Source of the DNA: a virus
DNA: 21,760 nt
Direction: 5' to 3' (one strand)
Virus record (IMG/VR): IMGVR_UViG_3300015242_000001
How positions within the stretch are numbered: position 1 is the stretch's first letter; each line of letters begins with the position of its first letter. The notes below the pieces were generated by a model. That model saw nothing but the letters and a program-made list of their open reading frames with translations. It had not been told where the DNA came from and made no database searches. Below, in pieces: positions 5,417 to 21,760 of the stretch. The position numbers and the translations under genes are program-made.

Positions 5417-5728
5417 ATGAATCAAAAAATTAAAGAACACTTAATAAAATATAATACCGAAAACGGTTACTCAATCGAAGAGGAATCCCTTATAGAAACT
5501 CTTACAGAAGCTAATGTGATTTATGAGAAAGAAACAAAAGGTAGTAGATGGTGGAATAACTATTTCAGGGTTGTAGAAATAGACGGGATGTTTATAGGGT
5601 ATGGATGGGCAAAGGCTTTCAGAGATGAGACACCAGCAGACTGCGGATGGGAATTTAATACTGATACTATCGGAGAGGTTGAAGCTGAAGTTATCATAAC
5701 TACTGTTTATCAATATAAAAATAAATAA
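5417..5728 (+). CDS. Hypothetical phage protein
   Basis: ORF track; tight packing. Confidence 0.75.
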   Translation: MNQKIKEHLIKYNTENGYSIEEESLIETLTEANVIYEKETKGSRWWNNYFRVVEIDGMFIGYGWAKAFRDETPADCGWEFNTDTIGEVEAEVIITTVYQYKNK

Positions 5729-5737
5729 AATATTTCG

Positions 5738-5938
5738 ATGAAAACTAAAAAGCCACAGCCTGTAAAGCAGGTATATGCTGAAACTTATCATAAGGGGGAG
5801 AACCCTTTGAATTTTGATGTTTTGAAAGAACTTCTTGAGAATAATCGTATCGAGGGATATATTACAAAAGCTGGATCTCTGAGTGATGGTAATTCCTTCT
5901 GTGACGTTCATCTTACAATAAAAGAGAAAACCAAATAA
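5738..5938 (+). CDS. Hypothetical phage protein
   Basis: ORF track; tight packing. Confidence 0.65.
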   Translation: MKTKKPQPVKQVYAETYHKGENPLNFDVLKELLENNRIEGYITKAGSLSDGNSFCDVHLTIKEKTK

Positions 5939-5939
5939 T

Positions 5940-6281
5940 ATGGGATGGGATGCATATGCAGTAGGGTATGTAGAAACTTTACATCAAAAGGATTTCGATA
6001 AAGCTATAAAGAGAATTCTCAGGAAGGGCCAGTATGCAGATGCTGGGTTAACTCAAGGTTACTTGGACTGTACACCTTGCGCCAAAGCAATGGAGGAAAT
6101 AACAGGGGTTACATCTTATGGGGAAGGTTACTCCCATCAATCGCTACTTTATATAGAAGATAAGATAAACCGTGCTAAACACGAACCTGACTCAGAAGTA
6201 GAACTTTGGGCTTTTTATAGTGCTCAAGAATTTCTGAAAATTTGTATTAAACATAAACTAGGTATTAAATTCTCATGGTAA
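5940..6281 (+). CDS. Hypothetical phage protein
   Basis: ORF track; tight packing. Confidence 0.75.
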   Translation: MGWDAYAVGYVETLHQKDFDKAIKRILRKGQYADAGLTQGYLDCTPCAKAMEEITGVTSYGEGYSHQSLLYIEDKINRAKHEPDSEVELWAFYSAQEFLKICIKHKLGIKFSW

Positions 6282-6520
6282 TGAATAATAAAACAAAACA
6301 TATACTATTATTTAGTTCAATCCTCTTAGTTCTGGTGTTGTTTATAACGGGACTTTGTATTGACCTACTTCTAACTGGAAAGATATTTCTTTGTATAGCT
6401 GGGGCAATTGTAGCAGGTATTATTATAGTATATATATGGCTTGAAACAGAAATGATGATATACGGGTCTTCCATAGAGACAGTAATTGATAAATCCAAAG
6501 AAGAAAATAAATGCAAGTAG
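6281..6520 (+). CDS. Small two-TM membrane protein
   Basis: Two hydrophobic segments; TAATG coupling favours start at 6281 over 6275. Confidence 0.7.
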   Translation: MNNKTKHILLFSSILLVLVLFITGLCIDLLLTGKIFLCIAGAIVAGIIIVYIWLETEMMIYGSSIETVIDKSKEENKCK

Positions 6521-6783: not shown

Positions 6784-7052
6784 CACCACAAGAAATAATA
6801 GCAGAATACATGAATCATTCGCTTTCTCAAGTGCATCTTTACCATAGCTGCTGGAATAGTTTAATGGAAGTAATCAAAAAACTAAATGAAACTACTTTGT
6901 TTGGATTATTTCCAAAGCTCCATTACATGGACAATACATCAAGGTTAAATTATGCTCTATCAAGAGCAGACATCGAGACAGCTTACAATGAAGTGATTAA
7001 TATTATTACAGCATCAAACAAACGGAAAAAGGATGAAAAAATATCAAACTAA
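6780..7052 (+). CDS. Hypothetical phage protein
   Basis: ORF track; ATGA overlap. Confidence 0.7.
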   Translation: MTPQEIIAEYMNHSLSQVHLYHSCWNSLMEVIKKLNETTLFGLFPKLHYMDNTSRLNYALSRADIETAYNEVINIITASNKRKKDEKISN

Positions 7053-7302
7053 ATTCCCTGAACAAGTAGAAGCAGTTCAATTGACAACTTCAAATTACAA
7101 GGAAGTAATCGATTGGACAGAGAAAGAATGCATTGTACATTATCAGGATGCTGGGAATATGGATTTAATGGGCATTACTGTAATAGATGGAAATACTCAC
7201 TGGCCGTTATTTTTAGGTATGTACATTTCAAAACATAAAGGGGGTGAGGTTTGTAACTATACAGAGGAAGGTTTTAAAAAGACTTGGGAGGAAATAATAT
7301 AA
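7033..7302 (+). CDS. Phage protein of the K.Y..KP..VEAVQ...F.KT(W/Y)E type
   Basis: Terminal motifs typical of a common uncharacterised phage family. Confidence 0.7.
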   Translation: MKKYQTKFPEQVEAVQLTTSNYKEVIDWTEKECIVHYQDAGNMDLMGITVIDGNTHWPLFLGMYISKHKGGEVCNYTEEGFKKTWEEII

Positions 7303-7304
7303 AA

Positions 7305-7577
7305 ATGACGAAGATTGAACTAGTAGGGTTGACAGTAACAGACCTCCAGAATTTATTGGATAATGCCGTTTCTAAGGCAATAGAAAGGTACAAAGAGGAA
7401 CAAAGGACCCCTTCAGATTGGGAGGAATTGACATTAGATCAAGCAGCTCAAGAACTACATTGCTGCAAAGCCACCATACGCCGAAAAATGATTCAGCTTA
7501 ATATCCAAGGAGCCAAAACAGGAAAGGAGATATTGATTCAACGTAAAGACTTAAAAAAAATCAAGAAGGCTTCTTGA
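7305..7577 (+). CDS. Excisionase-like HTH protein (MerR/HTH_17-like)
   Basis: LTLDQAAQELHCCKATIRRK..GKEILI motif; convergent with and overlapping the integrase by 17 bp; ATG at 7305 preferred to TTG at 7284. Confidence 0.8.
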   Translation: MTKIELVGLTVTDLQNLLDNAVSKAIERYKEEQRTPSDWEELTLDQAAQELHCCKATIRRKMIQLNIQGAKTGKEILIQRKDLKKIKKAS

Positions 7578-8730
7578 AAAAGGGGCTTTCTAACATCATA
7601 TTTGCCGCCTCCTGTTTACCAATCTTTATATACTTAAAAAATTCTTTTTCTGATTTGTGACCAGTAATCTTCATGATCGCTTTTACCGGAAAGCCCTGCA
7701 AGTACATAATAGTAGCAAATGTCCTCCTGGCAGTGTGAGCGCTTACAAGATCATATTTAGCCCAGTATTCTGCCTGTCTTCTCCCTCCTTTGGTAATAGA
7801 TATCAAATGCTGTTCAGTAATCCCAGCCATTTCACAGATATCAGGCAGGTGATAATTTAACCCCTCTGCCGTGGAATATACTGGTAACACCCCATTATAT
7901 TTTGTATAAATAGCATCGGCCATCCAGTGAACTGGGATAACAACCTTCTCCCCGGTTTTCTCTGTAAGAACTTCGAATTTATCACCAACACGCTTATACA
8001 GGTTGATCCGTCCCAGATCTTCAGCTCTAAGAGCAACCCAGCACCCGAATACAAAAACATCCCTTGCCCGACCTTTAGCGCCACTCAATGGTAAATTGTA
8101 AACAGCGGTCAATTCTTCGATAGTAAGCGCCACAGTATCTGATTCCTCCCATGAATACTTAAATTCTGGATTCTCAAAAACTTTGTTCTTATGTTTCTTG
8201 GCATCGTACATTTTAACCAGGAAAGCACTGAGTCTGGCAACTACCTCTGCAATCGAATTTCGGCTATAGTCCTTTTTTATCAGCCACTTCAATAAATTAC
8301 GATAATCTTCAATATTAAATCGATATGAGAACTTAAAGGCGGAGGCTGCCTCATAATTCTGCAACTTCTTGAGGACACTTTCGTAATTTTTGGCTGAAGC
8401 CTCACTGAACCGATTTCCATCCTTCTTTTTTAACAATTTCCCAGATCTCATATCAGCAACCATTTGCCCCCAATCTGATATAAAATCCGAAACATCCTTT
8501 TTGACTTTTGCCAAGTGCTCATTCAGGTGTTCTGTTAGCTCTGGTTTTAAGACTGGCTGATCTTGGATTTTTGCATTGGCAACATATTGCGTTATTAGAC
8601 GCTTGATTTTGTCAAGTCTAAGTATGTCGCCCTTTTCTTTAGATCCAACTTTTATTTTTGTAGGATACCGCAGACGACCATCTTGGCAGTAAAACGAGGC
8701 AAGTAAATAACCATTGGCTTTAATAAACAT
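7561..8730 (-). CDS. int: Tyrosine recombinase (phage integrase)
   Basis: Complete catalytic set: ALRAED (R), TEKTG (K), HTARRTFAT (HxxR), ITGHKS (H), FFKYI (Y). Confidence 0.95.
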   Translation of the reverse strand: MFIKANGYLLASFYCQDGRLRYPTKIKVGSKEKGDILRLDKIKRLITQYVANAKIQDQPVLKPELTEHLNEHLAKVKKDVSDFISDWGQMVADMRSGKLLKKKDGNRFSEASAKNYESVLKKLQNYEAASAFKFSYRFNIEDYRNLLKWLIKKDYSRNSIAEVVARLSAFLVKMYDAKKHKNKVFENPEFKYSWEESDTVALTIEELTAVYNLPLSGAKGRARDVFVFGCWVALRAEDLGRINLYKRVGDKFEVLTEKTGEKVVIPVHWMADAIYTKYNGVLPVYSTAEGLNYHLPDICEMAGITEQHLISITKGGRRQAEYWAKYDLVSAHTARRTFATIMYLQGFPVKAIMKITGHKSEKEFFKYIKIGKQEAANMMLESPFFKKPS

Positions 8731-8736
8731 AAACAG

Positions 8737-8784
8737 AGTATGTCTAAAAGTATGTCTAAAAGTATGTCTAAAAGTATGTCTAAA
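8737..8784. repeat. 4 perfect tandem copies of AGTATGTCTAAA (candidate integrase arm-type sites)
   Basis: Copies start at 8737, 8749, 8761 and 8773; core TATGTCT recurs at 8979 and 8991. Confidence 0.9.
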
Positions 8785-8788
8785 AAAG

Positions 8789-8796
8789 TAAAGTTA
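8789..8796 (-). promoter_or_regulatory. Candidate int promoter -7 variant TAACTTTA
   Basis: Same motif as 17153-17160; lies just upstream of the repeats. Confidence 0.45.
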
Positions 8797-9052
8797 AGTG
8801 AATTTATGTAGAATGAAGTAAAAATAAAAATTAGCTGAAACGCAGTGGTAATGGGGTATTCTTGATTTTAATCAATTTATCTTTTATCCTGAATTACATA
8901 TCTCGGACCAACGCCGGTGGAACAAAATTTCATCAAACCACTGTACAGTGCTCAATTCTGAGACGAAGTTATGATTTTTATGTCTTTTTTTATGTCTCCG
9001 TTTAGTTCAGGTCGCTTCGGTTATAAGACAAATATACTATCTTTCTATACTA

Positions 9053-9469
9053 TCATTTCACAAAATACTCGACTCCCAGCGCATACCCTTTCATGCCTAA
9101 GCCGCAGATACTGCCTACGCATTTAGGCGCTATCATGGAAATATGCCGGAAATCTTCCCGTGCATATACGTTGCTGATATGGATCTCCAGCACCGGCGTT
9201 TTGATAGCTGCGATCGCATCCCTGATCGCTACGGATGTATGGGTATAACCTCCGGCGTTCAGCAGGATACCGTCTACGGTAAATCCTTCCTGGTGCAGGT
9301 AATTGATGATCTCCCCCTCCACATTGCTCTGGAAATAGCTGAAGCGTACAGCGGGGTACTGTGCCTGTAGGGTAGCAAAATATGCCTCAAAGGACTCGCT
9401 GCCGTAAATACCGGGCTCCCGCTTGCCCAGCAGATTCAGATTAGGGCCGTTGATGATAACGATGTACAT
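9053..9469 (-). CDS. aroQ: Type II 3-dehydroquinate dehydratase
   Basis: NGPNLNLLGKREPGIYG, QSNVEG, NAGGYTHTSVAIRDA and EIHISNVYAREDFRH motifs. Confidence 0.97.
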   Translation of the reverse strand: MYIVIINGPNLNLLGKREPGIYGSESFEAYFATLQAQYPAVRFSYFQSNVEGEIINYLHQEGFTVDGILLNAGGYTHTSVAIRDAIAAIKTPVLEIHISNVYAREDFRHISMIAPKCVGSICGLGMKGYALGVEYFVK

Positions 9470-9474
9470 AGATA

Positions 9475-10038
9475 TTATTTATTTCCCCATCTGTAAGTAT
9501 GCTGCTCAATTCCTACCAAGTCCAGTACACGGTCTATTACGGTAGCAGCTACCGCCTCCAAGGTGGTTGGCTTGCTGTAGAAGGAGGGAGTGGCTGGACA
9601 GATGATCCCACCAGCTTCTGTAACAGTGAGCATATTGTGCAGGTGTATCAGGTTATAAGGTGTTTCTCTTACCATACAGATCAGCTTTCTGCGCTCTTTC
9701 AGCATTACATCCGCAGCACGGGTGATCAAGTCATTAGAAACGCCAGTAGCAATACGACCCAGGGTGCCCATGGAGCAGGGACAGATGATCATGGTATTGA
9801 ACTGTCCGGACCCGCTGGCAAAAGGTGCATAAAAATCCTGCTGCGTATAGAATTTGAATGGCAGCTCCGTATAACTTTTATCCGTCAGCTCTGTTTCCCA
9901 TACCGTTTTGGCATTCTCCGTCATCACCACAGCCACGGTATCTACCTGGGATACCGCTGCACTCAGTTTGTTCAGCAGTTGTCTGGCATATATGGAACCA
10001 CTAGCGCCTGTAATAGCCACTACTATACGATACTTCAT
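9475..10038 (-). CDS. ubiX: UbiX-family flavin prenyltransferase
   Basis: ITGASGSIY, ASGS, PCSMGTL, RAADVMLKERRKL, RETPY and PSFYSKP motifs. Confidence 0.96.
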   Translation of the reverse strand: MKYRIVVAITGASGSIYARQLLNKLSAAVSQVDTVAVVMTENAKTVWETELTDKSYTELPFKFYTQQDFYAPFASGSGQFNTMIICPCSMGTLGRIATGVSNDLITRAADVMLKERRKLICMVRETPYNLIHLHNMLTVTEAGGIICPATPSFYSKPTTLEAVAATVIDRVLDLVGIEQHTYRWGNK

Positions 10039-10044
10039 ACCTTA

Positions 10045-10052
10045 CAAAAATA
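10045..10052 (-). promoter_or_regulatory. -7 element TATTTTTG of ubiX-aroQ
   Basis: Exact TAnnTTTG, 6 nt before the ubiX ATG. Confidence 0.65.
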
Positions 10053-10054
10053 AA

Positions 10055-10080
10055 TAAACCGGATCATATAACCCGGTTTA
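10055..10080 (-). terminator. Hairpin TAAACCGG-N10-CCGGTTTA, terminator-like on the minus strand
   Basis: 8-bp perfect inverted repeat followed by a T-rich tract. Confidence 0.5.
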
Positions 10081-10117
10081 AAAAATTCCCTACCTTAGTA
10101 GTCTAACATATTATAAA

Positions 10118-10558
10118 ATGAAACCATTCATTCTCTCCCTTATTATGGTTCTATTGTGCCAATTGGGATTTTCCCAGTATTTATTAGGGTTAAACGAAGA
10201 GGAAGTTAAAGAACAAGCCAAAAGATTAGGAAAAGATGATAACATAATATTCGATAAGGTTTATAAAGATAAAAAGTACTTCAGTTTAACTTGGCAGGAT
10301 AATCTCCTTGAATGTAAAGTAATTGTAATGTTTAACGTCTATACAGAAAAATCTGTCACAACCGTCCTAATTCCTGTTGACCAAATCGTTTTCAAAACCC
10401 TTGTTAAAAGATTTGATGAAGATTATGTTAGATTATCCAATACGACCTGGAGGGCTAGATTTGAAGATCGCACAATTGATATTTCCAGCATGTGGGCTAC
10501 TATGTACTCTAAGTATGTTATAAACTTTAAGGAAATAAAGCCTGAAGATGATAATTAA
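10118..10558 (+). CDS. Secreted/periplasmic protein with predicted signal peptide (moron-like)
   Basis: MKPFILSLIMVLLCQLGFS|Q N-terminus; lone + strand gene; promoter-like TACCTTAG at 10091. Confidence 0.75.
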   Translation: MKPFILSLIMVLLCQLGFSQYLLGLNEEEVKEQAKRLGKDDNIIFDKVYKDKKYFSLTWQDNLLECKVIVMFNVYTEKSVTTVLIPVDQIVFKTLVKRFDEDYVRLSNTTWRARFEDRTIDISSMWATMYSKYVINFKEIKPEDDN

Positions 10559-10782
10559 TTTTCGGTTTCATATATTACGGTAGTATTATAATACTTTGCA
10601 ATACGTTCTACTTCTTTCGCAAATTCTTTTGATCTTACGGTTTTTGAATGCACTAGATCAAACCCGCCATGTTCGGTGGTTGCCCATACACAAATTGCTC
10701 CCAAAGTGGTATCTTTATTATCATACAAATCTGTTGATAAAAAATACTTTTTAGAGTCTCTGTTTAGTTGTTCCTCTTTCAT
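10555..10782 (-). CDS. Hypothetical phage protein
   Basis: ORF track; TAATG coupling. Confidence 0.7.
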   Translation of the reverse strand: MKEEQLNRDSKKYFLSTDLYDNKDTTLGAICVWATTEHGGFDLVHSKTVRSKEFAKEVERIAKYYNTTVIYETEN

Positions 10783-11000
10783 TAGTTATTAAAGTTTTTG
10801 AACCATTTCAATACTCCCTTTAAAATATTGTTTGTCTCATTCCCATCTTCCCGAAGAATTAAAGGTGAGGAAGTAATCACATCTTCATTATTTACATTCG
10901 GTAAATGTGTGCTGTATTTACCACAAGTATGTATGAATGCTTTCCTTGACTTAACTCCAGCTTCATTATATCTACAGGCAATACAACTATTTTTCCTCAT
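10782..11000 (-). CDS. Small CxxC...HxC protein
   Basis: ORF track; TAATG coupling. Confidence 0.65.
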   Translation of the reverse strand: MRKNSCIACRYNEAGVKSRKAFIHTCGKYSTHLPNVNNEDVITSSPLILREDGNETNNILKGVLKWFKNFNN

Positions 11001-11272
11001 TACAACTTATGTATTAATTGAAACAATTTACCTTTAATAGTTTCAGCTTCACTTGCATCAAAGATTGACTTATATTTACTCCCGTCTGAAAAAGGAGCGG
11101 TATTTTCATCTACTGTAGTCTCAGCCAATAGATGTCTCAGGATATCGATCTTATCAATTAATATCCTCTCTCTATCTATTTTAACTTTCTCTTCTATTTC
11201 TTCCAATTCCTTTTTCTTTAGCTCCAGGTTTAAAGAGCGTAAAGTAGTAGTTGGAGTTTTAGGCTTTGTCAT
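11000..11272 (-). CDS. Hypothetical coiled-coil protein
   Basis: ORF track; ATG at 11272 preferred. Confidence 0.7.
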   Translation of the reverse strand: MTKPKTPTTTLRSLNLELKKKELEEIEEKVKIDRERILIDKIDILRHLLAETTVDENTAPFSDGSKYKSIFDASEAETIKGKLFQLIHKL

Positions 11273-11274
11273 AA

Positions 11275-11442
11275 TTAAACAATTACACACCCTTTACCAG
11301 GATGAGTAGTTACGTGATACTCTGTACAGGAAGTACACCAATAAATACCTATCTGTCTATTTTTGAATTTCTTATTACTACGTAAAGCATCAGCATGTTT
11401 AGATGCTCCATATGTGGTTTTATGTTTTATTTTATTACACAT
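11275..11442 (-). CDS. Small Zn-finger-like protein, 55 aa (MCNKIKH...YWCTSCTEYHVT)
   Basis: Manual translation; C..K..H...YxCxxCxxYH pattern. Confidence 0.7.
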   Translation of the reverse strand: MCNKIKHKTTYGASKHADALRSNKKFKNRQIGIYWCTSCTEYHVTTHPGKGCVIV

Positions 11443-11659
11443 CTCTTGATACAATTAAACAATGATTACCTGCTATCTTTGTAGGGAACCCTATATATTT
11501 CTTGGGAATATAAAATCTAATGTATCCACAAAATTCTACAAATCCTGTATTACCACTATAAGGAACAAATAATACTTTATTTCCACCAATAGTTTTAATA
11601 ATAGAATTATATCCACGATTATCAAATAATTCTTTTTTCATTTTAGTTAGTGGATGCAT
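11435..11659 (-). CDS. Hypothetical phage protein
   Basis: ORF track. Confidence 0.6.
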   Translation of the reverse strand: MHPLTKMKKELFDNRGYNSIIKTIGGNKVLFVPYSGNTGFVEFCGYIRFYIPKKYIGFPTKIAGNHCLIVSRDV

Positions 11660-11660
11660 A

Positions 11661-12080
11661 TTATTTTATTTCAAGCCATTTACACAAAGTTCTAAATTCG
11701 TTTATTGAGGGAATTTTTCCATCAAATATCTTCCTCCAATCAAATCTTCCCGATCCATCTCTGATATGATTCTTCCTGTAAATTTTAGTATTTTGATTAA
11801 GTTCCCAGTATTCCAATTTGTACAATTCAAATAAATAGTCTTGTCTAGTAAAAGTACCTCCCTCATGAACCCATCCTTCAGCTTCTATTTGTTCTTTAGT
11901 GAGATAAGGAACACGCACATTACCCAATTCTAAATATTCATAGATATTATTTTCTTCACACTTCCAATTCTCATCTATTACAACATCCCACATCCATTGT
12001 GCATTTTCAATGATTTGCACATGACATTCATAACCAACCCTAATATCTTCTTTAGATGGTATAAAATATTTATTTTCCAT
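11661..12080 (-). CDS. Hypothetical phage protein, paralogue of 16278-16730
   Basis: Three shared motif blocks. Confidence 0.8.
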   Translation of the reverse strand: MENKYFIPSKEDIRVGYECHVQIIENAQWMWDVVIDENWKCEENNIYEYLELGNVRVPYLTKEQIEAEGWVHEGGTFTRQDYLFELYKLEYWELNQNTKIYRKNHIRDGSGRFDWRKIFDGKIPSINEFRTLCKWLEIK

Positions 12081-12265
12081 TCAATCTCATTATTAAGTTA
12101 GATAAGTCTTTAAATTCTTCATAAGTCATTTCTATATTTTGTTGAAGTTCAGCTTCCTTACTGTACTTAGAAAGTGAAATCACACCCATTCTTCTAAATG
12201 GGTTATGTCCCAAGTTGAATTAGGAGACTCAGTATTTAATATAGTATCCCACCAATTATTTTCCA

Positions 12266-12442
12266 TTACCTTGCTTCATCTATTTTTTTAACAAATAAAA
12301 ATGCTAACGGTAGAATCGCTAATACACATATTGCAAATTTCTCAAAGTTGTCCATAGGTCCCATTTGTGAAGCACAGAGCGCACTAAAAATGAATATCCA
12401 TATAAACAATAGGATAATATAAAATAATTGTTTGTTATTCAT
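12266..12442 (-). CDS. Small two-TM membrane protein, 58 aa (MNNKQLFYIILLFIW...)
   Basis: Manual translation; two hydrophobic helices; overlaps the upstream stop. Confidence 0.65.
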   Translation of the reverse strand: MNNKQLFYIILLFIWIFIFSALCASQMGPMDNFEKFAICVLAILPLAFLFVKKIDEAR

Positions 12443-12689
12443 GTTCTTTATATTTTTTTCTCGGTACGATGTCTTTTCCTTGAGTAGCTCTCCTTAAACA
12501 TATTGAACATAATCCACCTTTACTAATATTACCTCTCCATATAGAGTAACCCGTACCGTTATCTCTATTCCATCCTCTTTTACACATAGGTCCATCCGGT
12601 TTATCATAATCTCCTTTATAAAGATGGGTTACTTTATGATCATCACTGTGGTCCCTTGATTGCCCGGTTATATATCCATCTGGTATCAT
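12435..12689 (-). CDS. Small His/Cys metal-binding-like protein
   Basis: H...PMC...LCSIC pattern. Confidence 0.7.
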   Translation of the reverse strand: MIPDGYITGQSRDHSDDHKVTHLYKGDYDKPDGPMCKRGWNRDNGTGYSIWRGNISKGGLCSICLRRATQGKDIVPRKKYKEHE

Positions 12690-13171
12690 ACTTCTGTTCT
12701 TGGTTTAGTGTAATCTATTATGAACTGATAGTCTTCTATGGTCAAATCCCCATGATCCATATAACCTCCCAATTCCTGCTTAGTTACAGTTCCATGTAAA
12801 TACCCTTCTGCTAAAGTGAATAACCAATCATTAGCTGGTTTACGCTTTAAATGAAATTCTGTAGGAGTAACTGCCTCATGAGAGGGAAATCTTATAGGTT
12901 CCAATAGGCAATCTTCAATATCTTCATCTAAAATAGGGATAGTATCGAACCCTCCTACTATTGTACATAAATCGTTGAAAAGAATACTCTCAATTCTCCT
13001 GAGCCTTAATTGCAATTCTTTACAATAATTGAAAAGATTTTCTATAACTATATCTTTATCCGGTTCTCCAGACCAACCTAATGGAACACTGGGTCCATGG
13101 TCCCGATGAGCAATTTTCTTACTGTACTCTTTTTCTATATTCTCTAAATATTTATTAGATTCCGTTTGCAT
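12686..13171 (-). CDS. Hypothetical phage protein
   Basis: ORF track; ATGA overlap. Confidence 0.75.
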   Translation of the reverse strand: MQTESNKYLENIEKEYSKKIAHRDHGPSVPLGWSGEPDKDIVIENLFNYCKELQLRLRRIESILFNDLCTIVGGFDTIPILDEDIEDCLLEPIRFPSHEAVTPTEFHLKRKPANDWLFTLAEGYLHGTVTKQELGGYMDHGDLTIEDYQFIIDYTKPRTEV

Positions 13172-13176
13172 ATTAT

Positions 13177-13983
13177 TTATTTTAAAATTGAATCATCTCC
13201 TTCCAATCCCCATTTGGTTACTATCAAAAATCCATCTTTTACATAATGAAGTACTATAGGATCTGGGATTTCTTTATAGGTAAATACACCTTTCTTTTTT
13301 TGCCCTTCCATATTCATGTCAGACTCAGGAGCGCAAATGAAAAAAGGTATTGCAGTGGTATATCCATCGTTCATATATCTCGATGGCAGATTTTCGTAAA
13401 TCCACTCCCCACTCATTTGCGCAAGTCTCTGTTCATGCCTCTGATGTTCAGCATAACTTATTATGTTTGCTCCCCCATCTGCCAATAACACTATACTAAC
13501 ATCTAAGCTAAAAGATGTGGAATAGTTCCACATTGAATACCTATCTTCATCGTTTACTTGGAAACTCTCTATTTCCTTCAAATTCTTTAAAGGAATATCT
13601 CCCTTATAATGGTTAGAGGGACCACAAAGAAGGTTATACTTAGTACAGATTTCAATTACTTGCTCTCTAAATATAAATTTATACTGGGGATACTTGTTTT
13701 TATACTTTTTAACAATATTAGCCTTTCTGTCAGCGGATACTTCTTCACGCATTCTTTCAGAATATTTTGCTGAAACCTTAGTTCCTTGAAATCCATGTTT
13801 CTGCATTAACAAGGCTTTCTCTTTCTCCAGTTCGTTAACACCATCTTCACTAAGTATTCTCCTAGCCTCTGCTAATGCCCTATCTGCTGCTGTATCAAAT
13901 TCATTGTGAATAGCAGCTATTGTTTCAGCAGCAGTTGCTTGTGAAACGATTTCTTTTACTTTATTGAATATTTTAAATTTCAT
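13177..13983 (-). CDS. Hypothetical phage protein, 268 aa, ending DPIVL...GFLIVTKWG
   Basis: Long ORF within the block. Confidence 0.85.
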   Translation of the reverse strand: MKFKIFNKVKEIVSQATAAETIAAIHNEFDTAADRALAEARRILSEDGVNELEKEKALLMQKHGFQGTKVSAKYSERMREEVSADRKANIVKKYKNKYPQYKFIFREQVIEICTKYNLLCGPSNHYKGDIPLKNLKEIESFQVNDEDRYSMWNYSTSFSLDVSIVLLADGGANIISYAEHQRHEQRLAQMSGEWIYENLPSRYMNDGYTTAIPFFICAPESDMNMEGQKKKGVFTYKEIPDPIVLHYVKDGFLIVTKWGLEGDDSILK

Positions 13984-13984
13984 T

Positions 13985-14242
13985 TTATTTATTTAATTTT
14001 CTAATTACCAATTCTCCTTCTACAGCATTTGGCTCATGCTTTACAAGTAACGTACCTTTGCGAGATGTATCAACTTCTTTATACCCGTTATCTAAATAAT
14101 CTTTTTTACAAGCAAGCATAAAAGCATTAAATTCTTTCTCTGTCATATCAATTTCAAGATCTACAGGGCCAGTTAGATCATTATCTGTTATATATTTGGC
14201 TGCTTTTTCTTCAATTATTTCCAAGATTGATTTATCACTCAT
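13985..14242 (-). CDS. Hypothetical phage protein
   Basis: ORF track (14266); ATG at 14242 fits coupling better. Confidence 0.7.
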   Translation of the reverse strand: MSDKSILEIIEEKAAKYITDNDLTGPVDLEIDMTEKEFNAFMLACKKDYLDNGYKEVDTSRKGTLLVKHEPNAVEGELVIRKLNK

Positions 14243-19124: not shown

Positions 19125-19401
19125 TTTCATTACCTATGAAATTGACTGGCTCGATAGGAAGTTCAAAGAATTACAAAAATATGTTGACGATAGACCCTTC
19201 GATAAGTTAAAAGATAGAACTGACTCAGTAGGTAAAGTTATTTCTAAAATAGAAGATCAAATTAGAACCCTAAAAGATATTCTTAAAGATCTTCCATCTA
19301 TGCTCGAAGCATTAAATAACCTAAGAGAGAAAGAAGAAAAGAAGTTAGGGCCAATTAGAGGAGATCAAGCATTGTCCCCATTTGAGTCAGGAGATATTTA
19401 A
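19108..19401 (+). CDS. Helical protein coupled to terL, candidate terminase small subunit
   Basis: TAATG coupling to terL; coiled-coil character; function assigned by position only. Confidence 0.55.
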   Translation: MAKKNNFITYEIDWLDRKFKELQKYVDDRPFDKLKDRTDSVGKVISKIEDQIRTLKDILKDLPSMLEALNNLREKEEKKLGPIRGDQALSPFESGDI

Positions 19402-21760
19402 TGAATCATTACACTCAAGATACTGTCAATATATTTTTCCCAGATCAAGAAGAACCCATCTATGATCCGACAGATCCTATTTCAGATTATCAGTTCAAGG
19501 AATATTGGAAAAGAGAAAGAGATCGGTGTATAAATGGTTTCCATATAGCAGATGGTCAGGTATATATCCCAGGAGAATTATACAACCATTGTGTTTATTG
19601 GAAAATAGCTGCTTATATAGATAATCCAATCTCTGGAAGAAAAAGTCGTAAAATTATAACCCCCATTCTTAGAGATATTGAATGGATGATTTTTAAGGAT
19701 GTAGATACTTGTAGAAGAGATGGTAAGTTTTATAATTTAGTTGGGTCCAGGGATTTCGGAAAAGCCTTAATAAATAGTGCTACACTATATACAACAACGG
19801 GAGAAATAGAAATAGGAAATTCTAAAGTAGGAGATCAAATATATGGTGCTGATGGTAAGCTGACTACTATTACAGGTGTGTATCCTCAAGGCAGTATTGA
19901 TATTTTTAAAATCACTCTCAACGATGGAAGAGTATTGTATTGCTGTGATAATCATATTTGGAAAGTTTGGAATTCAAGAAAAAAGAAATACGAAAATTTA
20001 CCCTTAAATATAATAAGAAAAGATTACCTGCTTCCAAAAAAAGTTTCCTATAAAAATAGAAAAGGCATAGAATATAAATATGCAATACCTAATAATGAGG
20101 CAGTAGAATACAATGACAATGATACAACTCCAATAGATCCTTACTTTCTAGGATTGTGGTTGGGAGATGGTGATAATAGGTATATAAGAATTACAACTGT
20201 TGATCGTGAAATAAAACAATATGTTGAAAAATATGCTGGTTTAAATAACCTTTTAGTTAAAGATTCTGGAAAATATGGGTATAGAATAACTTCTGGTACA
20301 GTCGGCACAAGAAAATATAGAAGAAACCACGTATACACAAAATTCAAAGATTTACAATTAATTCAAAATAAACATATACCAAGTGCTTATTTCTATACAT
20401 CTATTGAAAATAGAATGAACTTATTGAGAGGGTTGATGGATACAGACGGAAGCTGTTCAAAAGACGGAACTGTGGAATTCAGTACATCAAATGTAAAATT
20501 AGCAAAGGATTTTTATAGACTGGTAAGAAGTTTAGGAATAATAGCTACTTGTAAAAAGAGAAAATCAGGTTACAAGAAAAATGGTATTTACATACAAACA
20601 AAAGATTCATATAGATTTACTTTACTTACAGATAAATTGATATTTAAATTAGAGAGGAAACTAAAAAACATTAAGAGCCATAGATCAGAGCGAGTTTCAA
20701 TAGTATCAATAGAAAGTTATGGTAAAGAAAACGCAACTTGTATAACTGTTGATAACAAGGATCAATTATTTTTAACTGACAACTATACAGTTACCCATAA
20801 CTCGATAATAGCTGCTTCATTAGCAGGACACAATTATTCCTTTTTTGATAATTCAGAGTCTGTAATATCAGGGGGGGAATCTTCCTACATAAAACTTGCT
20901 ACAAATAAAATAGAAGACGGGTTAACCAATTATCATCCAGTATTCAAAAAGAATAGGATTTCCTCCGATTGGAAAAAGGAAGTAAGAGCTGGTTGGAAAG
21001 ATAAATCTTCTAATCAACCCAGTGATAAATCCTCCAACTCTGCAATAATTGTCCGAAACTATGAGATGGGGACTAAAACCATGGCCGCAAATGGTACACG
21101 TCCTGGATTTCACCTGATTGATGAAATTGGAACCATCCCCAATCTTATAGGTTGTGTGAAAGATAGTGATGGATGTTGGTGGTCTGGCGGCGGGGATAAG
21201 CCTTCATGCCTTGTAATGCTGGCAGGAACAGGAGGGGACATGGAAGTAGGTCAAGAGGCTGCTGATATATTTTATGCTCCAGATGTATACAATATGTTAG
21301 CATTTGAAGATACTTGGGAAACAGGTAAAAAAATAGGCAGGTTTATTCCTGCTACAATGGCAAAAATGGCTTTTAAAGAGCCAATGAGATTATCTGATTA
21401 TTTGGGGATTGATCATCCAGATCTAGATAAAATTACCATACTGGTATCAAATGAAGAAAAGGCATTTAAAGAATGGTGGGAACCTACTCATGCGAAAGCT
21501 AAAAAAGGTGGAGCAAAAACGCTTACAAAATTCTTAGCTTATTGGCCGTTAAAACCCTCAGATAGTTTCCTTATAATTCAAGCTAATAACTTTAATATAC
21601 ATGCAGCTAGATTTCAACAATCTAGATTGAAGGAAAATAATATAACAGGTTCTTCTGTAGAAATAATAAATGATGGAGAAAAGTTAATACACAAATTCAT
21701 AAATAAACAACCGGTATCCGAATTCCCTATAAAATCAACAGAAAGAGATGGTTGTGTAGT
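19401..21760 (+). CDS. terL: Terminase large subunit (crAss-like), intein-containing, 3' partial
   Basis: Manual translation: YWKRERDRCING, Walker A GSRDFGK|S, Walker B FHLIDEIG, coupling motif GTGGD; open to the window end. Confidence 0.92.
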   Translation, partial: MNHYTQDTVNIFFPDQEEPIYDPTDPISDYQFKEYWKRERDRCINGFHIADGQVYIPGELYNHCVYWKIAAYIDNPISGRKSRKIITPILRDIEWMIFKDVDTCRRDGKFYNLVGSRDFGKALINSATLYTTTGEIEIGNSKVGDQIYGADGKLTTITGVYPQGSIDIFKITLNDGRVLYCCDNHIWKVWNSRKKKYENLPLNIIRKDYLLPKKVSYKNRKGIEYKYAIPNNEAVEYNDNDTTPIDPYFLGLWLGDGDNRYIRITTVDREIKQYVEKYAGLNNLLVKDSGKYGYRITSGTVGTRKYRRNHVYTKFKDLQLIQNKHIPSAYFYTSIENRMNLLRGLMDTDGSCSKDGTVEFSTSNVKLAKDFYRLVRSLGIIATCKKRKSGYKKNGIYIQTKDSYRFTLLTDKLIFKLERKLKNIKSHRSERVSIVSIESYGKENATCITVDNKDQLFLTDNYTVTHNSIIAASLAGHNYSFFDNSESVISGGESSYIKLATNKIEDGLTNYHPVFKKNRISSDWKKEVRAGWKDKSSNQPSDKSSNSAIIVRNYEMGTKTMAANGTRPGFHLIDEIGTIPNLIGCVKDSDGCWWSGGGDKPSCLVMLAGTGGDMEVGQEAADIFYAPDVYNMLAFEDTWETGKKIGRFIPATMAKMAFKEPMRLSDYLGIDHPDLDKITILVSNEEKAFKEWWEPTHAKAKKGGAKTLTKFLAYWPLKPSDSFLIIQANNFNIHAARFQQSRLKENNITGSSVEIINDGEKLIHKFINKQPVSEFPIKSTERDGCV
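19764..20801 (+). mobile_element. Class 3 intein with LAGLIDADG homing endonuclease, 346 aa
   Basis: Starts GK|ALINS and ends VTHN|S; block B HIW, block F TCITV, block G THN; PYFLGLWLGDG and LLRGLMDTDG motifs. Confidence 0.93.

Follow-up and report, generated by a model that had tools for sequence, protein, structure and literature searches.

A temperate crAss-like soil phage carries, beside its attachment site, the chromosomal ubiX-aroQ gene pair of Chitinophaga, cut down to the two coding sequences, and a related phage from an independent study has the same arrangement. We consider it probable that the temperate phage has retained this cassette as a moron or auxiliary metabolic operon, a reading drawn from comparative sequence evidence.

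The window, by which we mean the whole stretch of 21,760 nt that was analysed, corresponds to bases 47-21806 of one linear virus record (IMGVR_UViG_3300015242_000001; 43,601 nt, 35% GC), on which no terminal repeats were found. CheckV put the completeness of the record at 35%, and therefore a genome of about 125 kb fits, of which this contig makes up ~35%; AroQ and UbiX proteins identical to those of the window are also recorded on a contig of 126,075 nt. The stretch is present in soil metagenomes; none of the runs listed for it is an RNA run, which speaks neither for nor against expression. The database relatives of the portal protein belong to crAss-like phages of Bacteroides, Flavobacterium and Cellulophaga (23-30% identity), and no near relative of the phage was found in INPHARED. 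To the left of the cassette lie a tyrosine integrase gene and then the TATGTCT repeats and core of attP, and to the right small phage genes followed by genes for an intein-bearing large terminase, portal, major head and tail fibre proteins, which agrees with the phage genes on both sides that had been described. The insert in the large terminase gene (19401-21758 and beyond) is of the LAGLIDADG homing-endonuclease/intein type (PF14528, PF05204); it is retained in two relatives (L184 and L197) and probably missing from others (L185-L196), because the match to these spans only about 1.3 kb. Neither tRNA genes nor Rfam families were found in the window. The features around the cassette are as follows:

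7284..7577, plus strand: small ORF of 97 aa, Xis-like by position only, travelling with the integrase module
7561..8730, minus strand: tyrosine integrase of 389 aa (PF00589 above cut-off; phrog_1 integrase, E 3.7e-16)
8737..8785, no strand: P' arm with four TATGTCT arm-type repeats (8739-8781) spaced 12 nt apart, located between core and integrase start
8907..8933, minus strand: 27-bp att core, starting ATGAAATTTTGTTCC on the minus strand, invariant in three attP regions with diverged flanks
8979..8997, no strand: P arm with two TATGTCT arm-type repeats (8979/8991), conserved in two other phages (L161, L162)
9053..9469, minus strand: aroQ, type II 3-dehydroquinate dehydratase of 138 aa (PF01220, TIGR01088)
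9475..10038, minus strand: ubiX, flavin prenyltransferase of 187 aa (TIGR00421, NF004685), 5 nt upstream of aroQ
10045..10052, minus strand: putative Bacteroidota-type -7-like box TATTTTTG, 6 nt before the ubiX ATG, called by position
10055..10080, minus strand: terminator-like hairpin upstream of ubiX, 11 pairs then a T-run (fold z = -2.76)
10118..10558, plus strand: phage gene of 146 aa, divergent from ubiX and next to the cassette on its right; the N-terminus of the product is signal-peptide-like

Identity and origin of the gene pair

Against PF01220, AroQ scored 183 bits (cut-off 23.3; E 2.6e-54) and covered profile positions 2-137 of 138, and it reached 177.3 bits against TIGR01088 (cut-off 169.85). 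Aligned to the solved enzymes 1uqr and 5wrf, it has the motifs GPNLN (Asn), NAGGYTHTS and EIHISN (His) as well as the lid Arg and Tyr, residues that presumably play their generally known parts in the active site. UbiX scored 197.2 bits against TIGR00421 (ubiX_pad; cut-off 108.9) over positions 1-181 of 181 and 195.5 bits against NF004685 (cut-off 188), and it stayed under the cut-offs of the VdcB and BagM exception models. The motifs TGASG (Ser), KERR (Arg), FY (Tyr) and C-terminal RWG (Trp) are present when it is aligned to 6m8v and 3zqu/4zaf, and a Glu aligns with E49 of PaUbiX, the Pseudomonas aeruginosa enzyme (3zqu/4zaf). None of the 70 AroQ columns that are invariant across 17 host orthologues is altered in the phage protein, and 2 of the 100 host-invariant columns of UbiX are, both conservatively (V122M, A175V). 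Judged by full length and kept motifs, AroQ belongs to the type II 3-dehydroquinate dehydratase family, and by full length and kept residues for binding FMN and prenyl phosphate UbiX belongs to the flavin prenyltransferase family. The preliminary description, made from the letters of the window, had spoken of two full-length housekeeping genes with intact motifs and a GC content above that of the flanking phage genes, and both statements stand: curated cut-offs are passed, and GC reaches 0.48-0.50 between 9000 and 10000, compared with 0.30-0.36 on either side, the phage as a whole having roughly 33%. GC3 differs as well (0.61 and 0.51 in the cassette genes vs 0.23-0.39 in ten phage genes).

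The best protein matches of both AroQ and UbiX are in Chitinophaga, and a DNA search of 103 Chitinophaga genomes found ubiX and aroQ adjacent, in the same order and orientation, in 101 of them, so that hosts hold a copy of their own. Identity to the closest species in this search is 78-80% at the nucleotide level and 83-89% at the amino acid level, and homology to the hosts stops where the two coding sequences end, at window positions ~9051 and ~10040. In the AroQ, UbiX and concatenated trees the phage copy falls within one Chitinophaga clade (L168/L170/L175-L177; bootstrap 95 for the concatenation), which holds the C. rupis group and three further species. Protein matches, gene adjacency and trees thus confirm the proposed host derivation, and to judge from these comparisons the donor genus is Chitinophaga. 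The true donor is probably unsampled, because proteins of uncultured Chitinophaga reach up to 92% amino acid identity to the phage AroQ.

In the hosts the pair is preceded by a brxC-like gene and followed by bioB or a terpene synthase gene, neither of which the phage has, and the ubiX-aroQ gap of 5 nt in the phage is the tightest seen, compared with 18-216 nt in the hosts. A XerD-like gene downstream of host aroQ, which the phage layout would mimic, was considered and rejected, as the neighbours there are bioB or terpene synthase. One Chitinophaga genome (G020) has two equal-scoring full-length copies of the pair, on contigs C22 and C23, which could be a duplication or assembly redundancy.

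Retention in two phage lineages

In the Logan assembly of the probable source run (X1), a single contig of 38,077 nt covers 8756-14000 with 0 mismatches and includes attP, the cassette with both its junctions, and phage genes. This assembly breaks only at 8756-8766, within the 12-nt tandem arm repeats. Contig depth at the break is 25.5 on the left and 19.6 on the right, and the split may reflect co-existing variants with different integrase modules. Two runs from an independent 2025 study (X2, X3) yielded contigs of 52,696 and 33,877 nt that are colinear with the window on both sides of the cassette (on the left 5417-5722, 5933-6293 and 7032-7454; on the right 9016-10078, 10080-11000, 11006-11660 and onward, to 12877), at roughly 89-97% identity and with flanking genes that are 3-11% different. 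The piece that holds the cassette, 9016-10078, differs by 63 substitutions in 1062 nt (about 94% identity), a divergence as large as that of the flanking phage genes, and its only gap is a single base at 10039, immediately beyond the ubiX start codon, so that the coding sequences are indel-free. In the same contigs 7454-9016, with the integrase gene and attP, is exchanged for 1599 other letters, and 183 additional letters stand at 10078-10080, exactly where the hairpin ahead of ubiX has its outer foot; the cassette outlasted the exchange of the adjacent integration module. The 146-aa protein encoded at 10118-10558 matched no family, and 143 of its 146 residues are identical in the X2/X3 relative (P0019). 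The cassette therefore lies inside a real phage and is neither a misassembly nor a set of genes between two elements. Because X2 and X3 carry the same arrangement, it is part of the phage lineage and older than the split of the two phages. A metagenome scan gave one match (L181), which equals the window except for 11 single-base gaps and is possibly not independent of it.

More distant relatives are without the cassette. Fourteen IMG/VR phages whose TerL is about 50-68% identical have in common with the window a region of only ~2 kb ahead of TerL, and no integrase, aroQ or ubiX gene was found within 10 kb in any of them; DHquinase_II, UbiX and Phage_integrase likewise had no match anywhere in 5 near-complete relatives of 102-125 kb. 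Since both are missing from these 14 loci and five near-complete relatives, the lysogeny module and the cassette are adjacent additions particular to the lineage. Scans of IMG/VR with AroQ and with the neighbouring 268-aa protein returned no match, and the scan with UbiX returned one, 45% identical and in an unrelated record.

The cassette had been called recently captured, and for any known species this is unsupported, because identity to the 103 Chitinophaga species is at most 80% and dS to the nearest hosts is about 1 or more (dN 0.08-0.10), while the sister phage already has the cassette. To judge from this distribution, capture predates the split of the two phage lineages, so that at least two lineages inherited the cassette from a shared ancestor; a GC3 that has not ameliorated speaks against a great age of capture. 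The dN/dS of the phage cassette against the hosts is about 0.06-0.1. For AroQ, dN on the phage branch equals that on the host branches, and dS is saturated, which makes branch estimates resting on aroQ dS unusable. UbiX has a phage-branch dN of 0.06-0.075, about twofold the 0.02-0.04 of the hosts, a possible sign of relaxed constraint; even so, dN/dS on the UbiX branch is about 0.1. The 90% cluster of UbiX has a sole other member, differing at 1 of 187 residues.

Integration module and attachment sites

The integration module (small ORF, integrase and attP; 7284-9045) has about 40% GC and recurs at 65-77% DNA identity in two IMG/VR phages of about 41% GC that are otherwise unrelated, with no other gene in common. 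The integrases of two such phages are 67-81% identical to that of the window, ORFs beside related integrases in L161 and L163 have 61-63% amino acid identity to the 97-aa ORF, and both attP arms are conserved in L161 and L162, where attP is colinear across the 8756-8766 break. No ubiX-aroQ cassette was found in the two phages with the same attP. Integration modules have evidently been swapped at 7284-9045, as the module is common to unrelated phages and replaced in X2/X3. The cassette sits 53 nt outside the P arm and thus, as had been noted, beyond the right-hand TATGTCT repeats (8979/8991).

The 27-mer core occurs exactly, and once each, in three Chitinophaga genomes (C. rupis, strain GbtcB8 and a MAG), where it lies 24 nt upstream of trhO (core L164:1616-1642; trhO L164:1667-2710), a gene that passes the TrhO equivalog model. 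Lying between ordinary host sequence, the three sites are empty attB sites. A core at the 3' end of a host gene was considered and rejected, since the core is in the intergenic leader upstream of trhO. The host core begins a 10-codon mini-ORF (MKFCSTGVGP-stop), and upstream of the core, at a distance of about 50 nt, stands a -7-like box, TATCTTTG. The exact core is thereby found in the C. rupis clade, within which both cassette genes nest. In these three genomes the copies of the cassette are among the closest to that of the phage (about 80% nucleotide identity), with attB and ubiX-aroQ on different contigs (G001-G003); ubiX-aroQ was not found within 6-8 kb around attB in these genomes, nor the core within 6 kb of the cassette in any host locus examined. 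From the genomes closest to the whole cassette (G070, G007 and G094) the core is missing even with 3 mismatches, and no lysogen was seen among the 103 Chitinophaga genomes. Chitinophaga integrases that are 33-53% identical occupy other sites, and none lies beside trhO-flanking genes or carries the core. An origin by aberrant excision through the phage's own integrase and attachment site was rejected: both attP arms are complete and attB, upstream of trhO, is apart from ubiX-aroQ, so the cassette is not such a product, in line with the earlier view that it is no simple outcome of imprecise excision.

Possible roles of the cassette

Upstream of ubiX, the terminator-like hairpin that had been described is present, and it would shield the cassette from phage transcription. 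As to the claim that the pair has its own -7 promoter, a candidate box is found 6 nt before the ubiX ATG, but the window shows no enrichment of TAnnTTTG (24 found vs 29.9 expected), so that the promoter call for TATTTTTG is a weak, positional hint. Four operon-first ORFs have a box of this kind (2250, 4295, 10045 on the minus strand and 15221 on the minus strand) 4-18 nt ahead of the start codon, a placement that hints at very short leaders in the phage. From this putative Bacteroidota-type promoter ubiX and aroQ would be transcribed together. An infected or lysogenic cell would then gain a second, diverged type II dehydroquinase, adding capacity at step 3 of the shikimate pathway, and the phage UbiX would act as a second prenyl-FMN synthase, activating the host's single UbiD-family decarboxylase. 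No UbiD was found within the 43.6 kb of phage sequence, and each of 5 Chitinophaga genomes has one UbiD, so a plausible client of the phage UbiX exists in the host. Bacteroides thetaiotaomicron matches the UbiX model and not the UbiD model, and UbiX may have different clients in different Bacteroidota lineages.

On the minus strand the order is ubiX, aroQ, P arm, core, P' arm and integrase gene, with the same polarity as core and trhO in the host, and integration would therefore leave ubiX-aroQ at the end of the prophage, ~170 nt upstream of trhO and pointing towards it. No terminator-like site or stable fold was found between the aroQ stop and the att core, and the host TATCTTTG box would be left at the far junction (attL). 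By this layout, read-out into trhO is possible.

What speaks for a retained moron or auxiliary metabolic operon is, on the one hand, that host-derived metabolic genes are flanked by viral genes on a verified viral contig, as is expected of auxiliary metabolic genes, and, on the other hand, that it is missing at related loci and has a composition unlike that of the phage, as morons do. Because the related phage from another study has it too, it is genuine, long-kept cargo. Against a function it counts that the hosts already have ubiX-aroQ of their own, which makes the benefit of a second copy questionable. This is also the first point in favour of a neutral passenger, i.e. an undecayed leftover of illegitimate recombination or of an aberrant excision that is useless to the phage; the absence from all other relatives, the host-like GC3 and the roughly doubled rate of UbiX on the phage branch fit that reading as well. 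However, the cassette is indel-free in two lineages whose flanking genes differ by 3-11%, AroQ has lost no invariant residue, and the pair is trimmed to its coding sequences with a gap far below the host range, whereas useless DNA generally tends to disappear quickly from packaged phage genomes. We regard a neutral passenger as possible and clearly less likely than retained cargo. Lower still we place an artefact, be it an assembly chimera or chromosomal genes between two separate elements, to which we give next to no credence: the sharp GC jump at the cassette and the Logan break with its unequal depths could suggest one, but the break sits in a tandem repeat and not at a cassette edge, two other phages have attP colinear across it, one 38 kb contig contains both junctions, and the independent study has the same arrangement. 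These contigs, together with the different neighbours of the host copies (brxC upstream, bioB or terpene synthase downstream), exclude both forms of artefact.

Two further readings give the cassette a part in integration. It had been suggested that ~1 kb of homology might serve integrase-independent integration, and RecA-dependent entry into the chromosomal ubiX-aroQ would find its target in almost all Chitinophaga genomes. Such a role is unlikely, though, since the longest stretch of perfect agreement with any of the sampled host copies measures only 14-26 nt. In addition, no sampled species is more than 80% identical, the phage already owns a complete int-attP system, and a homology patch would not need both reading frames to be kept; we hold this to be very improbable. 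Somewhat less remote, and still improbable, is a read-out promoter module whose main selected role would be to restore transcription of trhO, separated from its own promoter by integration 24 nt before its start codon. The shared polarity of the cassette and of core and trhO, the host TATCTTTG box that would stay at attL and the stretch from the aroQ stop to the core, with no terminator-like site or stable fold, agree with it, but its basis is geometry throughout, two phages with the same attP lack such a cassette, and no lysogen was seen among the 103 genomes. Moreover, X2/X3 have another sequence where the window has int-attP and yet keep the cassette, so trhO read-out cannot be its only role. 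A combination, in which a selected lysogenic-conversion module does two jobs, supplying extra AroQ and UbiX and re-driving trhO (encoding a tRNA-U34 hydroxylase) by terminator-less read-out, is to us a rather doubtful proposal, with better prospects than read-out as the main role and poorer ones than a neutral passenger. If it were true, a housekeeping operon taken from the host would serve the phage as a patch, promoter included, over the scar of its own integration.

Relation to known systems

Among the closest parallels to the retained cassette is the brxC-ubiX-aroQ locus of Chitinophaga itself (e.g. in C. rupis, C. eiseniae and C. arvensicola), with which it has the gene pair, its order and orientation and the host-like GC3 in common; it differs in the absence of brxC and of the host flanks, the 5-nt gap and the phage DNA around it. 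Specialised transducing phages, such as those formed by aberrant excision of the lambda gal/bio type, also carry host DNA beside the attachment site of a temperate phage. Here, in contrast, both attP arms are intact, there is no hybrid att site, and host ubiX-aroQ is away from attB. In lambdoid phages, morons and lysogenic-conversion genes sit next to att sites, and the cassette is like them as an insert of foreign composition beside attP, with a hairpin and a promoter-like box, that is missing in relatives. It differs in that it encodes a pair of housekeeping biosynthetic enzymes instead of a surface, toxin or exclusion protein, and its promoter and terminator are putative.

Metabolic genes in soil viral contigs are often suspected to be host contamination or chimeras. 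The cassette is a clean, cross-validated case, for which the donor genus, the integration target, both boundaries and retention in two lineages are documented, and its carrier is a crAss-like phage with a lysogeny module. It offers a concrete system in Chitinophaga, made up of AroQ, a prenyl-FMN synthase and an attB upstream of trhO, in which one can test whether the cargo benefits lysogens.

Our literature search found no report of aroQ and ubiX together in a phage. Taken singly, aroQ has been counted among the auxiliary metabolic genes of gut phageomes, without further study (PMC12180181), and a UbiX-like shdB is annotated in the Microcystis phage MaAM05 (MW495066.1), with a match of 151 nt at 69% identity. 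The likeness to these auxiliary metabolic genes is that of host-derived metabolic genes in viral genomes, each gene there having been flagged on its own; the difference is that here both genes are the host's own operon, with donor genus, attB and retention on record. The cassette is thus a well-validated case of the moron and auxiliary metabolic gene kind and involves no new mechanism.
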